64,000 nucleotides of DNA, taken from NCBI GenBank assembly GCA_963745025.1, contig CAVUWD010000020.1, forward strand, positions 96,001 to 160,000, written 5' to 3'. The notes below the pieces were generated by a model that made no database searches, was not told where the DNA came from, and saw only the letters and a program-made list of their open reading frames with translations. The translations under genes were made by a program, and so were the position numbers. Each line of letters begins with the position of its first letter. Position 1 is the stretch's first letter. This DNA comes from an uncultured delta proteobacterium (lineage in GTDB: Bacteria; Desulfobacterota; Binatia; JACPRU01). This document shows positions 16,668-22,524 of this stretch, piece after piece.

Positions 16668-18860
16668 TCAGAGAGCTTCCAGTCTCGCGACTGCTACCGC
16701 GAGCTTGCGGATTCCAAAACCGCCGAACATGACGGTAACCTTCTCGCGCTCGCCGTTGCCTTCGGTGGCGCGTACGATCCCTTCGCCGAGCGTCGGGTGA
16801 CGCACACGCGTGCCGACCGGGAACGACGGCCGTGCCAGCGCTGCGAGCTTGATCGGTCGGGAACCCACGGCGACTTGCGATTCGCTGTAGTCGATCACTC
16901 GCTCGCGCGGCTCATGCGCGGCGTCGTCCTCGGTGCGATCGGTGAGCCGCTCCGCAAAACCCGGCCCGCGAAGCTCGAGAAGCTCGGCCGGGATTTCGCG
17001 TAGGAAGCGTGACGGAGGATTCTCGGTCTCCGCGCCGAAGAGATGCCGCCGGCGTGCCCGCGACAGGTAGAGCTGCTCACGGGCACGGGTCATGCCGACG
17101 TAGCAGAGGCGGCGCTCCTCCTCGACGGCATCCCTCTCCATCAGCGAGCGGCGATGTGGAAAAATTCCTTCTTCCATGCCGACGAGGAATACGACGGGAA
17201 ACTCAAGCCCCTTGGAGGTGTGCAGGGTCATGAGCGTGATGCGATCGTGATCGTCGCTCAACGCATCGGCATCCGCCACCAGTGCGGCTTGTTCGAGAAA
17301 CTCGACGAGTCCCTGGCCTTCCCGATCGGCTTCTTGAGCGACCGTCACGAACTCCCGCAGATCCTCGAGCCGCGATTCCGAGTCGCCGTTCGCCCGCGCG
17401 CGCAGCGTCTCCAGGTAGCGGGTGAGACGGAAGATCTCCTCGACGAGGGCGCCGATCGGGTCTGCCGCTCGCGCGCGAAGCTCCGCAAGCATCTTCGCGA
17501 AGCCAAGAATCTTCCCGCGCACCGCCGTCGGTAGCGCTTCCGGGGGCTCGGCGAGCGTCTCGTCGAGCGAGACATCGCGAGCGCGTGCGGCGGCGACGAG
17601 CTTTTCGAGCGTCGAGGCGCCGATCCCCCGGGCCGGGACGTTGAGAATGCGCTGTAAGCTCCACTCGTCGTCGCGATTGGCGACGACGCGCAAGTACGCG
17701 AGGATATCCTTGATCTCCTTGCGCTCGTAGAACTTGACACCGCCGACCAACGAATACGCGATGCCGGCACGCAAGCATTCCTCCTCGAAGACCCGCGATT
17801 GCGCGTTGGTGCGGTAGAAGACCACGAAGTCGCCGAGCGGTCGCTGGCGCGAGCCCCGAGCGATCTCCTGCACGACGAAGCGCGCTTCGGCCCGCTCATC
17901 GGCTGCGTGATGGAGGATCGCGCGAGAACCGCGCGGGTTCTCGGTCCAGAGCGTCTTTCCCCTCCGGCTCCGATTGTTGCGGATGACCGCGCCCGCCGCG
18001 GCGAGGATGCTTTGGGTGGAGCGGTAGTTCTGTTCGAGTCGGATCACCGTGGCTTCGGGATAATCCTTCTCGAACTCGAGGATGTTGCGGATGTCGGCGC
18101 CCCGCCACCCGTAGATCGATTGATCCTCGTCGCCGACCGCGCTCAAGTTGCGGTGCGCGCCGGCGAGTGCGTGAAGCCACTGGTACTGGGCACGGTTCGT
18201 GTCCTGATACTCGTCGACGAGCAGGTAGCGAAACCCCTGCTGGTAGCGGCGAGCGACGTCCGGGACGCGCTCGAAGAGCGTGAGCGCGAGCAGCAGAAGA
18301 TCGCCGAAATCGACCGCGTTGTTGCGGACGAGCGCCGCCTGATAGAGCGCATAGGCCTCGGCGGCCGCTGCGTCCGTGGACGTCGCGGCGGCGGCGAGCA
18401 GTCGGTCCGGAGTGAGCGCCTCGTTCTTCGCCTGATCGATGCGGGCGAGCAGCGCTTGCGGCGTGACGGGGAAGGATCGGCCTTCGATCGCGGCGGTCAG
18501 CACGCCGAGTTGATCGTGGTCGTCGTAAACGACGAAGGAGGGCTGATAGCCGAGGCCGAGCGTCTCGATGTGTCGCCGCAGCAGGCGAGACGAGATCGAA
18601 TGAAACGTGCCGATCCAGAGCTCTGCGGCGCCCGTTCCGATCAACCGTTCGATGCGCTCGCGCACCTCGCGCGCCGCTTTGTTGGTGAACGTGACGGCGA
18701 GCAGCTCGTTGGGTCGAGCGCGGCCCGCACGAAGAAGGTGGGCGATACGGTGCGTGAGAACGCGCGTCTTGCCGCTTCCCGCGCCGGCGACCACCAGCAA
18801 CGGCCCTTCGCCGTGCTCCACGGCCTTCTGCTGCTCGGGGTTCAGCCCGCCATCCGCCAC
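16668..18860 (-). CDS. uvrD: ATP-dependent DNA helicase UvrD/PcrA
   Basis: LNPEQ, AGAGSGKT, TFTNKAA, DEYQDTN, GDEDQSIYGWRGA, HTSKGLEF, EERRLCYVGMTRA; GTG start at 18860. Confidence 0.95.
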   Translation of the reverse strand: MADGGLNPEQQKAVEHGEGPLLVVAGAGSGKTRVLTHRIAHLLRAGRARPNELLAVTFTNKAAREVRERIERLIGTGAAELWIGTFHSISSRLLRRHIETLGLGYQPSFVVYDDHDQLGVLTAAIEGRSFPVTPQALLARIDQAKNEALTPDRLLAAAATSTDAAAAEAYALYQAALVRNNAVDFGDLLLLALTLFERVPDVARRYQQGFRYLLVDEYQDTNRAQYQWLHALAGAHRNLSAVGDEDQSIYGWRGADIRNILEFEKDYPEATVIRLEQNYRSTQSILAAAGAVIRNNRSRRGKTLWTENPRGSRAILHHAADERAEARFVVQEIARGSRQRPLGDFVVFYRTNAQSRVFEEECLRAGIAYSLVGGVKFYERKEIKDILAYLRVVANRDDEWSLQRILNVPARGIGASTLEKLVAAARARDVSLDETLAEPPEALPTAVRGKILGFAKMLAELRARAADPIGALVEEIFRLTRYLETLRARANGDSESRLEDLREFVTVAQEADREGQGLVEFLEQAALVADADALSDDHDRITLMTLHTSKGLEFPVVFLVGMEEGIFPHRRSLMERDAVEEERRLCYVGMTRAREQLYLSRARRRHLFGAETENPPSRFLREIPAELLELRGPGFAERLTDRTEDDAAHEPRERVIDYSESQVAVGSRPIKLAALARPSFPVGTRVRHPTLGEGIVRATEGNGEREKVTVMFGGFGIRKLAVAVARLEAL

Positions 18861-18923
18861 ACGCTTCCTCGATCCGCCCGAGCCTTCTCTTTGATGCAAT
18901 TCAAAGCGACAGGCAATACGGTC

Positions 18924-18964
18924 AAAAAAAGAGGGCTGCGAGACGGAATGACCTCGCAGCCCTC
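18924..18964 (-). terminator. Intrinsic terminator after 18991-19377 gene
   Basis: 12-bp perfect stem gagggctgcgag/ctcgcagccctc followed on minus strand by T7. Confidence 0.85.
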
Positions 18965-18990
18965 GTACAGTCGGAGAGGTGACGATCGCT

Positions 18991-19377
18991 TCAGACGGCG
19001 ATGCGGTTGTCCTCCTCGGCGTTTGCCGTCTGCGTGGATACGCGGCCACCGGCCAGGCGGGCACGCTGACGCCATTCCTGAAGCCCGCGCCGCAGATAGT
19101 CTGCGTTCAGCTCGAGCGTGTGGCAGATGTTCTCGTACGCAAAGACCCAGGAATTATCCGACGAGAAGAGCCATTCCTCCGCTTCGGAGAAGAGCTCGCG
19201 ACCGCGCGATTCGCGCGAGAACGCAAACTTCTGATAGCAATCGACCGCGTCCTCGAGCACCGCCAGCATCAACCGCTTCTCGCCACGAGTTGCCGAGCCG
19301 CGACCACGAAAATGTGCGAAGAATTGTGACGGCAGCAGCGTATCCGGCTCGAAAAGACTGACCACAGACTGACGCAT
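18991..19377 (-). CDS. Small helical hypothetical protein (paralog A)
   Basis: GAGGAGG RBS, own terminator; aligns end to end with 19839-20201 product. Confidence 0.85.
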   Translation of the reverse strand: MRQSVVSLFEPDTLLPSQFFAHFRGRGSATRGEKRLMLAVLEDAVDCYQKFAFSRESRGRELFSEAEEWLFSSDNSWVFAYENICHTLELNADYLRRGLQEWRQRARLAGGRVSTQTANAEEDNRIAV

Positions 19378-19838
19378 TTACGCTCCTCCTCAGTTACAGC
19401 TACCCGCACCCTGCCCCTGGATTCGGCTGCGAGTTCAGGGCTTAGAACCAGTGGCGCACAATATGCCGGGCGCGCGTCAGAAAGCTAATGAAAAACTCTT
19501 TTTTGTATTATTAGCTTCTCTTATCGCGGCGCGTCAAAAATGGTGCGAGTCGAGAACGCGACGGAGCTCGCCGAAGCCGATTCTCGGGTATCGACGTAGG
19601 ATATTCCGATTCGCTAAGACTTCCGAAGAGTTATTCCACGGTCACACCGCCGGGCACGCCCGCGGCGCCGGCCCCGGGACGCGCTCTGGCGCGCCAATTC
19701 GTTTGGCGTCCAGGGGCCTCGCGGCTCCGATGAATCCCTCCGTCGACGTATCCGAAGCGCAACTGCGAGGCGGTTCACGCTCCGGCGAAACGAGTTCCAC
19801 CGCAAAGGCCGCACGCGGTGGCAGGAAGAGGCGGACAG

Positions 19839-20201
19839 CTACGCGGCACGCGAGGTAGTCGCCAAGCTTCGCTGCCGATCCCGCCAAGCGAATAGCGAGC
19901 GCCTCACCTTTGTCGGATTCAGCTGGAAGAGCTCGCAGAGCCGATCGAAGGAGAATATGGATTCTTGACCCGTAATCTCGATCCACTCCATAGTCTCGAC
20001 GTACGCCTCGCTCCGCTCACGACCCAGCATCACTTCCTTGCGAAAGGTCTCGATACCGTCGCTGAACACGGTCCACAAAAGTGAGAGCTCGCCGGACCAG
20101 TTTGGCTGTTGCTCGGAGAAGAACTGCTCTGGGAGGATGAAGTCCGGTTCCAGATTCGCGAAAGCTGTCGGATCCATGGGTTCAGGTAAGCGTTGTGCCA
20201 T
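19839..20201 (-). CDS. Small helical hypothetical protein (paralog B)
   Basis: ATG 20201 with GGAGGG RBS; shares EPD..LP.QFF, GE..L..V..D, EW, F....C....LN...RR.L..WR.R with paralog A. Confidence 0.82.
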   Translation of the reverse strand: MAQRLPEPMDPTAFANLEPDFILPEQFFSEQQPNWSGELSLLWTVFSDGIETFRKEVMLGRERSEAYVETMEWIEITGQESIFSFDRLCELFQLNPTKVRRSLFAWRDRQRSLATTSRAA

Positions 20202-20239
20202 TTTTTCATTCCCTCCAGAATGACGATGGCACGTCTTAA

Positions 20240-20256
20240 AGCAATTACTTTGCCAA
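20240..20256 (-). promoter_or_regulatory. sigma54 (RpoN) -24/-12 promoter for paralog B
   Basis: Minus strand TTGGCAAAGTAATTGCT: GG-N10-GC with TGGCA and TTGCT, just upstream of RBS, preceded by an AT-rich tract. Confidence 0.7.
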
Positions 20257-20925
20257 CTTTCGTGCAAGTCAAAATTTGGCTATTCTCTGATATGGATCTA
20301 TGGCTTAGCCAAATATTGATACTACGATTTATGAATCCATTAAGATACGATGATACAAGACTTTAACATTAGTGGCCAATAATTGTCAGTTCAAGGCGGC
20401 CACTTTAGTTCACTCCCGGAAAATATGCGGATGAAACCCGTATAGCCAGGTTCGTTTTCGGTCACTGATAGCAAGCCGTTCTTCGATGCGTCGATCGATA
20501 TGGTCTCGACGTATCCACCATCAGAAACGCTTCATCAGGCTCTTCGAAATCGTCGATCAGGATGCGAAGCTCCAGAACCATCAGGTCATCGGCGCGGGAC
20601 AAGAACGGCACATGCTCCCGAACAGTGACCAGAACCGACGGTAGCTCGCCACGCGTTTGCCCCCGAAGGACGGCTCGATCCAGCGGCCGAGGCCGTACCC
20701 GAGCACGCCGAAGGCGGTGCGGCCAACGTTTGATCCGGCGGCGAGAAGAATTGCCGAGCGCGTGCGAAGTGCCTCGGTTGCGCCCGGGGTCTGCGTTGAT
20801 CGAAAACGTGTCGTTCGGCCCCGCTCGAAGGCTAGGGCGTCGACGCTCATACGAGAGAGGACTGTTGCGAGTCGTGACGACGATGTCTAGTGTTAGCATT
20901 GCCGTTGCCGTCCGCCGCAAGTCCC

Positions 20926-22524
20926 ATGCTCTACGAAGACCGCGTCGCCCAGTTTCGCTGGCAGATTCCCGAGGACTTCAATTTCGCGTGGGATGTCATC
21001 GACGCCTACGCGCAGGATCGTAGCCGGTTGGCGCTCGTCTGGGAAAACGAGGCCGGCGACGAGGCGCGGTACACGTTCTGGGATTTCTCCGAGCGGAGCC
21101 GCCGATTCGCCAACGTGCTTCTCGGTCTCGGCGTCTGCCGCGGCGATCCGGTGATGATCATGCTGCCGCGCATTCCCGAGTGGCAGACGGTGTTCCTCGG
21201 CGTGCTCCGCATCGGCGCCCTGGCGATTCCCTGCACCTCCCAGCTTCGCGCCAAAGACATCGTCTACAGGGCAAACCACAGCGAGGCAAAGGCGATCGTA
21301 ACGACCGCGGAGAACTGCGAGCTCGTTGAGAGCGCGCTCGCCGAGTGTCCCTCCCTCGACGCGAGGATTGCGGCGGGCGGACCGCGGCCGGGCTGGACGA
21401 ACTTTCAAGAGGCGATGCGGGACGCCCCGCGCTCGCTCGAGCGCGTGCGCACACGCTCGAGTGAGCCGGCGATCTGCTTTTACACATCGGGCACGACGAA
21501 GGAGCCGAAGGCCGTCCTGCACGCTCATTCATACACGCTTGCCCACCGCGTGACCGGCGAGGCGTGGCTCGACCTCCGCCGCACCGACCTGCACTGGACG
21601 ACGTCCGACACCGGCTGGGCGAAGGCGGCTTGGGGTGTGCTCTTCGGTCCGTGGAACCTCGGCGTGCCGGTCCTCATGTACAACGGCCGGTTCGAGCCCA
21701 AGAAGGAGCTCCAGCTTCTGGAAAAGCATCAGGTGACCACGTTCTGCGCCCCGCCCACAGAATATCGAATGCTCGTCAAGGAGGATCTCGCGCGGTTCGA
21801 TCTCCCGAAGCTGAGACACTGTACGGGGGCCGGGGAGCCGCTCAATCCCGAAGTCATCGATCAATGGAAGAAGGCTTACGGCTTGACCATACACGACGGC
21901 TACGGGCAGAGCGAAACCGTGCTCCTGGTCGGTAACCTCGCCGGCTTGCCGGTTCGGCCAGGCTCGATGGGCAAGCCCGCACCCGGCCACGATGTCCGCG
22001 TCATCGACGAAGCTGGCAGAGAAGCGCCGGTCGGTGAGGTCGGCGAAGTGGCATTGCGGGGACGAACGCCGTCTCTTTTTCTGGAATACTGGAAAAATCC
22101 TGGCGAGAGCGAGGCGTGCTGGCGGGGGGATTTTTATCTGACCGGAGATCGCGCGTACCGCGACGAGCAGGGATACTTCTGGTTCGTCGGTCGCGGCGAC
22201 GACGTGATCATTTCCGCTGGCTATCGCATCGGCCCGTTCGAGGTCGAGAGCGCGCTTCTCACCCATCCTGCCGTTCTAGAGTCCGCGGTCGTGGCGAGCC
22301 CGGACCCCGTTCGCGGCAGCATCGTCAAGGCGTTCATCAAGCTGAGACCGCAGCACGTCGGCTCCGAAGACCTGCAGAAACAAATTCAAGACCACGTGAA
22401 GCGCATCACGGCGCCCTACAAGTATCCACGAGAGATCGAGTTCGTCGACGATCTGCCGAAGACGGTGAGTGGGAAGATCCGCCGTGTCGAACTGCGTAAA
22501 CGCGAGGAAGACCGCAAACGTTGA
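20926..22524 (+). CDS. Acyl-CoA synthetase (medium-chain/acetyl-CoA synthetase-like, AMP-binding)
   Basis: YTSGTTKEPK, DTGWAK, GYGQSET, TGDR, GYRIGPFEVES, PKTVSGKI. Confidence 0.93.
   Translation: MLYEDRVAQFRWQIPEDFNFAWDVIDAYAQDRSRLALVWENEAGDEARYTFWDFSERSRRFANVLLGLGVCRGDPVMIMLPRIPEWQTVFLGVLRIGALAIPCTSQLRAKDIVYRANHSEAKAIVTTAENCELVESALAECPSLDARIAAGGPRPGWTNFQEAMRDAPRSLERVRTRSSEPAICFYTSGTTKEPKAVLHAHSYTLAHRVTGEAWLDLRRTDLHWTTSDTGWAKAAWGVLFGPWNLGVPVLMYNGRFEPKKELQLLEKHQVTTFCAPPTEYRMLVKEDLARFDLPKLRHCTGAGEPLNPEVIDQWKKAYGLTIHDGYGQSETVLLVGNLAGLPVRPGSMGKPAPGHDVRVIDEAGREAPVGEVGEVALRGRTPSLFLEYWKNPGESEACWRGDFYLTGDRAYRDEQGYFWFVGRGDDVIISAGYRIGPFEVESALLTHPAVLESAVVASPDPVRGSIVKAFIKLRPQHVGSEDLQKQIQDHVKRITAPYKYPREIEFVDDLPKTVSGKIRRVELRKREEDRKR

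Follow-up and report, generated by a model that had tools for sequence, protein, structure and literature searches.

Two small genes, A and B, on the minus strand of the window (G000:C20:96001-160000, i.e., the whole stretch of 64,000 nucleotides (nt) analyzed here, to which positions refer unless another contig is given) encode members of a protein family occurring universally and in multiple copies in the class Binatia, a lineage in which it is expanded. Judged from sequence patterns and a structural model, these proteins could be small regulators binding nucleic acid, a reading given a probability of about 0.4. Transcription of B from a sigma-54-type promoter is well supported by sequence comparison, and A is preceded by a deeply conserved non-coding element of its own. 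This is a large and new family without a name, of a probably familiar kind, i.e., small regulators, and with an unusually clear wiring amenable to testing. An earlier note on this DNA, drawn up from the letters alone, had described A and B as tandem paralogs with dedicated expression signals, representing an uncharacterized, lineage-expanded family of small DNA- or RNA-polymerase-binding regulators wired into a sigma-54 cascade.

All 41 Binatia-class genomes searched, belonging to 14 GTDB families, contain the family, with 1–21 matches each (median 8) and about 360 family genes altogether, and so do 81 of 81 genomes of the class when another paralog serves as query. From other classes of the same phylum, 6 of 59 sampled genomes gave a match, one each. 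The genome carrying the window holds 12 copies at an expect value (E) ≤1e-5, distributed over 10 contigs. Hence, the multicopy occurrence in Binatia-like genomes, which the earlier note had mentioned, and the postulated lineage expansion are both borne out, the distribution not being single-copy. An exhaustive profile search of 1.84 billion representatives resulted in 12,723 matches at E ≤1e-3 (clusters at 50% identity) and 6,540 at E ≤1e-10, with a protein length of 112–216 amino acids (aa) in all 150 matches listed from this search. A word-based search gave 1,308 relatives, all annotated as 'hypothetical' and with only Binatia or Binatota as organism names; the named sources of relatives are Binatia, Binatota or 'uncultured delta proteobacterium'. 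Fusions appear to be rare, as a search for long or fused forms, in which lengths of 224–302 aa were not covered, turned up only one long form, a 366-aa protein without Pfam domains.

In line with the designation as an uncharacterized family, A and B show no Pfam or NCBIfam match above the curated cut-off and none at all in PHROGs or PADLOC, and neither an enzyme family nor a characterized structural family could be assigned. The only Pfam line obtained is DUF6247 (E 0.07, 13.8 bits versus a cut-off of 26.9). In the ESM Atlas, the nearest named lead is DUF6280 (score 0.87), which was not confirmed since it matches no family gene in the genome; otherwise, only unnamed Binatota clusters are retrieved. 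Likewise, phrog_7215 was not confirmed, showing no match to the family genes of this genome and matching 4 of 150 members with a best E of 7e-4. Among literature titles and abstract openings, no paper was found tying Binatia or Binatota to sigma-54 or to such a family.

Some of the weaker copies in this genome carry in-frame stops. On the same contig, outside the window, the segments G000:C20:246541-246864 and G000:C20:255595-255744 match weakly (E 4.6e-10 and 5.8e-7, respectively), bear one in-frame TGA each and are probably decayed copies. Two near-duplicate paralogs (G000:C19:378518-379036 and G000:C16:128101-128502; loci L017 and L019) have common upstream DNA including the apparent 3′ end of a CDP-alcohol phosphatidyltransferase gene, which suggests a segmental duplication; a third paralog (L020) is also located near a CDP-alcohol phosphatidyltransferase gene and an LPG-synthase-like gene. 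The GC content at third codon positions of the paralogs amounts to 0.64–0.75, and a difference from the genome is not demonstrable, the long open reading frame (ORF) proxy used for the latter not being clean.

Sequence comparison identifies A and B as true paralogs. BLASTP aligns them near full length with 32 identities in 107 positions (30%, E 5e-16), and the motif blocks quoted in the earlier note do align. Both genes are under purifying selection, with orthologs of A from six genomes of the same GTDB family showing 75–92% identity and ratios of nonsynonymous to synonymous substitution rates (dN/dS) of 0.05–0.12, and orthologs of B 57–87% identity and dN/dS values of 0.06–0.20 in the five computable pairs (dS not computable for the sixth). 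The ribosome-binding sites (RBS) previously seen before each gene are both present. Extension of B to 20267 via a TTG codon was rejected because the resulting form would cover the gene's own promoter and orthologs begin at ATG. The spacer between A and B is 461 nt here and 121–796 nt across orthologous loci, with no conserved ORF inside, and an Rfam search of 18800–20600 found nothing. Assembled contigs from four soil metatranscriptome libraries cover A at 19058–19415 (three runs, 2–4 differences) and B at 19727–20078, including 112 nt past the stop (two runs, 0–3 differences); such contigs attest presence only, carrying no information on strand, transcript ends or level, and may derive from DNA carry-over. 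Promoters and spacer are among the parts without coverage by such contigs, from which no conclusion is drawn. At 19242–19282, encoding GEKRLMLAVLEDAV, many short pieces (about 33–58 nt) of other metatranscriptome contigs match with 88–95% likeness and probably represent transcripts of further family members in different organisms.

For B, the clean sigma-54 promoter reported in the earlier note is corroborated. The element scores 10 of 12 against TGGCACG-N4-TTGCW, with GG at –24, GC at –12 and exact spacing, and its core TGGC..A....TTGCT is invariant in seven of seven orthologous loci within otherwise poorly conserved DNA. In the 5.65-Mb genome, the strict form TGGCA-N6-TTGCW occurs at only eight sites on both strands, seven of these 22–63 nt before a same-strand ORF. 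The sense strand of the 300 nt preceding each of 67 family genes (55 unique ones plus the 12 copies of this genome) was scanned for TGGCACG-N4-TTGCW with GG and GC fixed and at least 10 of 12 matches. This element precedes 12 of the 14 genes of the family branch to which B belongs (B clade), at a distance of 45–70 nt and in four GTDB families, with one more gene reaching 9 of 12. Outside the B clade, in contrast, it was found before 3 of 53 family genes, A not being among the carriers. In the antisense control, 2 of the 55 unique genes reach the score, and the background corresponds to 371 sites in 11.29 Mb (both strands), i.e., 0.013 per 400 nt. Moreover, the genome encodes one rpoN and about 23 enhancer-binding proteins (22 full and one split Sigma54_activat genes, plus weaker matches). 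Since the element is invariant in orthologs, specific to the B clade and rare in the genome, and since rpoN and activators are encoded, sigma-54 control of B is well supported. As read from the promoter regions, this control characterizes the B clade rather than the whole family. The proposed wiring of the family into a sigma-54 cascade, together with the enrichment of –24/–12 motifs that the earlier note had wanted to see across family members, thus holds for the B clade but neither for the rest of the family nor for A.

Further upstream of B, within the AT-rich DNA that had also been pointed out before, a block with the pattern GACAA.T.T...C is invariant in seven of seven orthologous loci; from its position only, it is a candidate binding site for the activator, i.e., an enhancer-binding protein. 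Between this block and the promoter, an inverted repeat, ATTTGGCTA-N23-TAGCCAAAT, is present in this genome. A scan found no terminator after B, and a local hairpin is not called as such because it folds no better than shuffled sequence.

The approximately 60 nt before A are almost invariant, with about 44 invariant columns in seven genomes. This block holds a sigma-70-like TTGACG (19537-19532), an AATAAT/TAATAA box resembling a –10 element and the sequence GCTAATAATACAAAAAAGAGTTTTTCATTAGC (19515-19484), and an AT-rich tract of 30% GC precedes the gene, as claimed earlier. In A's GTDB family, GCTAATAATACAAAAAAGAGTTTTTCATTAGC represents an inverted repeat, GCTAAT-N20-ATTAGC, which occurs once in the genome. 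A bipartite core, nTAAT-N14-TTTTTCAy, is found at fixed spacing 50–150 nt before A-lineage genes of eight GTDB families. The core motif [AT]TTTCA[TC] is present on the sense strand before 20 of the 55 unique family genes versus 2 of 55 on the antisense strand (background 0.065 per 280 nt), and the family genes bearing it are almost all of the A lineage. In this genome, only A carries the bipartite element, and TAAT-N15-17-TTTCAy occurs four times overall. Because deep non-coding conservation is here tied to one gene lineage, the element would most simply be a dedicated operator or an unusual promoter. The terminator that the earlier note had ascribed to A is confirmed as well (Table 1).

Table 1. 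Location of genes and sequence elements at the A/B locus (window numbering; gene coordinates of A and B include the stop codon).
Feature	Position	Strand	Details
Gene A	18991..19377	minus	128 aa; A lineage of the family
Gene B	19839..20201	minus	120 aa from ATG; B clade of the family
RBS of A	19383..19391	minus	GAGGAGGAG, 5 nt before ATG; purine-rich block retained in orthologs
RBS of B	20210..20216	minus	GGAGGGA, 9 nt before ATG; aligned in orthologs
Conserved promoter-region block before A	19481..19540	minus	reads TTGACGCGCCGCGATAAG-N5-CTAATAATAcAAAAAAGAGTTTTTCATTAGCTT
Terminator of A	18921..18964 (18964-18921)	minus	14-bp stem with 9 GC pairs, 6-nt loop, T7 run
Sigma-54-type –24/–12 promoter of B	20240..20255 (20255-20240)	minus	TGGCAAAGTAATTGCT, 54 nt before ATG
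Conserved block, candidate activator site	20372..20389	minus	CTGACAATTATTGGCCAC, imperfectly palindromic, located about 130 nt before the –24 element
AT-rich region upstream of B	20202..20460		36–47% GC (measured at 20200–20500) versus 66% in the genome
UvrD/PcrA-type helicase	16668..18890	minus	downstream of A; context, outside the pair
AMP-binding acyl-CoA synthetase	20890..22524	plus	divergent from B; context

Relatives within the same GTDB family show the gene order synthetase (divergent), B, A and helicase as well. A is followed by the helicase gene in seven of seven loci of this family, versus none of 22 loci of other families, and B precedes A in six of the seven, the seventh contig starting too close to tell. 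Across the compared loci, no partner gene is kept beside A or B, and no mobile-element genes were seen among the neighbors. The longest reading of the helicase gene (GTG at 19064; window 18858-19064, minus strand) overlaps the 3′ end of A and its terminator. Since the UvrD-helicase domain begins five residues after the start used at 18857, the real start is probably near 18890 and the listed GTG too far upstream.

A maximum-likelihood tree was calculated from 67 family proteins, i.e., the 12 of this genome and the 55 unique genes, the latter from loci selected for scoring best against the profile or B and hence not a random sample. The deepest split (support 100/99) separates the B clade (14 rows, four GTDB families) from the rest, with A placed in the other part. 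In other GTDB families, the B clade is located elsewhere, upstream of ffh. In three such loci (L096-L098; G011:C2, G075:C15 and G067:C23), B-clade genes with sigma-54 promoter lie directly upstream of ffh, which is followed by rpsP and trmD in two of the three; on their upstream side, either an aminotransferase class IV gene (two loci, in one after a chorismate-binding enzyme) or a GAF histidine kinase gene is found. In four further loci from two GTDB families (L092-L095; G010:C2, G026:C32, G018:C249 and G034:C52), two divergent family genes flank a glutamate-cysteine-ligase-family (GCS2) gene, beside which an S24-like peptidase (three loci) or an enoyl-CoA hydratase (the fourth) is encoded, with an L,D-transpeptidase nearby in all four and a D,D-carboxypeptidase in three. 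For the other copies of this genome, no conserved partner gene was found among 93 neighboring ORFs, and the neighbors are diverse.

A third orthogroup, not foreseen in the earlier note, is linked to iron-sulfur cluster (ISC) genes in most Binatia families. Of 30 best-hit loci (L100-L129) of the paralog at G000:C13:397397-397831 (L015:6398-6832), 23 are located at the 3′ end of ISC genes, in the arrangements IscS-IscA-X (8), HscA-IscX-Rrf2-X (13, often followed by pepA) and HscA-IscX-X (2), X being the family gene. The remaining seven are A-lineage genes beside YkuD, a GCS2-family ligase and an S24-like peptidase. In an independent Pfam scan of nearest neighbors, an ISC gene lies beside 14 of 42 family genes. 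The position of the Rrf2 regulator after iscX instead of at the operon head is itself unusual. This linkage raises the possibility that the family serves as an accessory of iron-sulfur or thiol metabolism, for example, in sulfur or iron relay or as an assembly modulator acting with IscS, IscA or IscX, with A and B being condition-specific copies and not transcription factors. Besides the neighborhoods, the presence of Cys85 in 149 of 150 aligned sequences, an acidic core and the fact that, in other GTDB families, A-lineage genes adjoin a glutamate-cysteine-ligase-family gene would fit such a role. However, a single conserved cysteine does not make a cluster-binding motif, neither A nor B is located near ISC genes, and the family is unrelated to IscX (hhalign probability 0.2%). 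Furthermore, up to 21 matches per genome would be unusual for an assembly factor, and the phage-borne copies described below are found among methyltransferase, replication and packaging genes. Taken together, such an accessory function is considered improbable for the family.

Distant phage relatives, likewise mentioned in the earlier note, do exist. In 50,697 phage records of GenBank, a tblastn search with four family proteins (A and B plus two other paralogs) gave no match, and with A alone as query no viral contig was found. With a narrower alignment as query, 11 IMG/VR contigs (L130-L140) encoding relatives were detected, six at E ≤1e-10, the identity amounting to 29–39% over about 90–127 residues in seven contigs and the matches in the remaining four being shorter and partial. 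In L132 and L140, the family match sits within a longer ORF of 313–383 aa. The phage proteins retain the hallmark motifs, D12, L36, D43, W69, C85 and R96 being invariant in a nine-sequence alignment. Scanning of 76 ORFs from 7 of the 11 contigs revealed terminase, portal, head protease, replication initiator, RecT, Holliday-junction resolvase, DNA methyltransferase and anti-restriction genes. Head-and-packaging or replication/recombination genes are present on five of the seven, and the other two show only methyltransferase and anti-restriction matches. The best structural neighbors in the viral library are four proteins of 104–122 aa from uncultured Caudovirales phages (among them BFVD A0A6J5S871 and A0A6J5LQ74; E 1.3e-3 to 5e-2, probability 1.00, TM 0.50–0.68, 17–26% identity). 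These and the IMG/VR proteins resemble A and B in size and predicted fold and are likewise uncharacterized; unlike B and the ISC-linked branch, the IMG/VR copies have neither sigma-54 promoter nor ISC context.

The occurrence on phage contigs, with an anti-restriction gene near some of the copies, and the presence of two small adjacent genes with a GC content below the genome mean could also hint at a toxin-antitoxin, defense or mobile-element module, in which A and B would act on each other. Type II toxin-antitoxin pairs consist of two small genes that are not related to each other, are closely linked or overlap within one operon, and are conserved as a pair. A and B are, in contrast, paralogous, 461 nt apart and equipped with separate promoters, the spacer varies over the range given above without a conserved ORF, and most family genes are solitary, so that assignment to this type was rejected. 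As PADLOC gave no match, mobile-element genes were not seen nearby and the synteny with housekeeping genes is stable across genera, any such module is very improbable.

The earlier note had seen a likely short helix-turn-helix (HTH) at the C terminus. A structural model was calculated with AlphaFold2 from the 150-sequence alignment, resulting in a mean predicted local distance difference test (pLDDT) score of 81.7, with blocks over residues 31–110 at 92–98 and low confidence for the first 30 and last 20 residues. Helices are predicted at residues 16–21, 31–50, 57–70, 81–87 and 92–108, the latter four forming a core that follows a conserved N-terminal peptide, P-D-x-[LI]-L-P-x-Q-[FY]. The last two core helices would form an HTH-like hairpin with the sequence F-S-F-x-N-[IV]-C-x-x-L-G-[LI]-[DN]-P-x-Y-[LVI]-R-R-G-L-x-x-W-[KR], and the C-terminal tail is variable and often arginine-rich (net charge of at least +3 in 61%). 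The classical 20-residue HTH pattern has hydrophobic residues at positions 4, 8, 10 and 15, a small residue at 5 and glycine at 9. Among the 150 sequences, the corresponding positions are occupied by I/V84, C85 (149 sequences), L88 (139), G89 (80, with D in 31 and E in 17), L/I90 and L/V/I95; in addition, P92 is found in 109 and R96 in all 150. The helix at 92–108 is basic, with a net charge of at least +2 in 78%, and the preceding segment 71–91 is acidic (–2 or lower in 92%). Hence, sequence pattern and charge are those expected from the HTH claim, but neither a profile match above threshold nor a fold match could be added. Pfam HTH profiles do not match A or B at all. Profile searches of PDB sequences gave only matches at E 0.4–1 (ketol-acid reductoisomerase, TubR and PhoU), that to TubR, at E of about 1, falling on the hairpin segment. 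The Foldseek comparison of the model with the PDB, suggested in the earlier note, turned out negative at E ≤1e-3, C.BclI and a homeodomain appearing only at E 4.6–4.8. With VIA-align, the best Z values were 6.5 (48,161 representative chains) and 6.3 (Foldseek top list), for the McpS sensor domain and other generic helical bundles, these scores being below the tool's own meaningful level for helical proteins. When two copies of A were modeled as a homodimer with the family alignment, the result was 'no answer' at a score of 0.00, which speaks neither for nor against dimerization.

Several observations weigh against nucleic-acid binding and the proposed regulation. The proteins have an acidic core, its net charge being –2 in the median, –3 in A and –7 in B, and the isoelectric points of the entire proteins are 5.7 for A and 4.7 for B. 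HTH profiles fall on the hairpin in only 2 of 138 relatives and stay below threshold (HTH_29, E 0.0089, 16.5 bits versus 28.1; HTH_23, E 0.0091, 16.2 versus 24.6), the fold searches yielded generic helical bundles and no HTH protein, and one relative, P0254, bears an additional HTH_23 domain that is separate from the family domain and lies outside it. Y94, R96, G98 and W102, possibly exposed on the last helix, are conserved across paralogs, which is more in keeping with a shared target or a structural function than with differing DNA specificities. Moreover, the element before A is palindromic in A's GTDB family only, and the orthogroup at the ISC cluster hints at a role other than in transcription, at least in the case of that branch.

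Much of this would be accommodated if the proteins were small acidic helical adaptors or modulators that bind protein instead of nucleic acid, contacting one conserved partner via the invariant surface and the N-terminal peptide, with paralogs differing mainly in timing. This partner might be RNA polymerase or a sigma factor, but also an enhancer-binding protein or Rrf2-type regulator; the proteins would then resemble phage and lineage-specific factors binding RNA polymerase or sigma. Beyond the acidic core, the generic four-helix-bundle fold and the fusion with a separate HTH domain, this explanation can draw on the conservation of Q18, E33, D43, W69, R96 and W102 in all paralogs and phage copies and on that of the N-terminal linear motif, which is retained though modeled at low confidence. 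Phage homologs are located in early or DNA-metabolism regions, and one orthogroup is found directly downstream of the Rrf2 regulator in 13 of 30 loci. On the other hand, no conserved partner gene was found beside A or B, and this explanation does not account for the basic charge of the last helix and of the tails or for the HTH sequence pattern. Moreover, much of the residue conservation could have structural reasons, such as helix caps, core packing or a salt bridge. A purely protein-binding function is regarded as a serious alternative, albeit one somewhat less probable than nucleic-acid binding.

According to the preferred reading as nucleic-acid-binding regulators, A and B would be non-enzymatic and bind nucleic acid, most likely DNA, via the basic C-terminal hairpin and tail, with a partner common to all copies being contacted by the conserved N-terminal peptide and the acidic portion of the bundle. 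B would be transcribed only when a sigma-54 activator fires at the TGGCA-N6-TTGCT promoter. A would be transcribed from its own sigma-70-like promoter with the deeply conserved AT-rich element, a likely dedicated and possibly autoregulatory operator, and transcription would end at its own terminator. As A and B are neighbors in this GTDB family, a cascade in which sigma-54-induced B acts at the operator of A is conceivable; in other families, the B clade is found elsewhere.

Binatia are abundant uncultured bacteria of soil and sediment, and an unnamed family that is universal, multicopy, nearly confined to them and shared with phages represents a sizeable annotation blind spot. Three orthogroups show distinct wiring, i.e., a sigma-54 promoter, a unique operator-like element and linkage to ISC genes. 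If the proteins are regulators, the conserved promoter elements would offer entry points to sigma-54 and iron-sulfur regulation in this uncultured class; if they are not, the ISC link would point to an undescribed accessory of iron-sulfur metabolism.

Among known systems, a related arrangement is found in Cereibacter sphaeroides, where an Xre-family repressor is reported to be expressed from an RpoN3 promoter (PMC11999139). Both the repressor gene and B are small stand-alone regulator-like genes behind a –24/–12 promoter, and the hairpin of B fits the HTH sequence pattern, as in small HTH regulators under sigma-54. As in the Xre/RpoN3 case, the arrangement of B would add a second regulatory tier below the enhancer-binding protein. 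However, no membership of A and B in Xre or another HTH family was found by sequence or fold, and their domain has four predicted helices, an acidic core and a conserved N-terminal peptide, DNA binding being a prediction.

With IscX/YfhJ (PF04384), the family has in common that the proteins are small, acidic and helical and that one orthogroup is located at the 3′ end of ISC genes, sometimes directly after iscX. Homology to IscX was rejected, as hhalign of the 150-sequence alignment against an IscX from one Binatia locus gave E 0.31 at the probability stated above, and a Pfam match is lacking. Unlike IscX, the family is multicopy, with most copies, including A and B, located elsewhere, and iscX and a family gene are found side by side in the same loci.

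WhiB-like (Wbl) proteins of Actinobacteria and their phages are lineage-restricted, universal and multicopy, comprise about 100 aa, often have basic tails, are individually regulated and bind a 4Fe-4S cluster through four cysteines. The A/B family is similar in being lineage-restricted, multicopy and phage-borne, with often basic tails, individual regulation and one branch tied to iron-sulfur genes. It differs in having only one conserved cysteine (Cys85) and another predicted fold, and therefore does not belong to the Wbl proteins. Conceivably, though with little probability, it might be their Binatia counterpart, i.e., phage-borne multicopy factors acting on the transcription machinery or DNA via one conserved surface, whose three ancient branches (ISC/Rrf2, sigma-54 and own operator) would link transcription to iron-sulfur or redox status and to sigma-54 signals. 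By analogy, the sigma-54-controlled small regulator would be the nearest known arrangement in function and the WhiB-like proteins the nearest analog in family biology.

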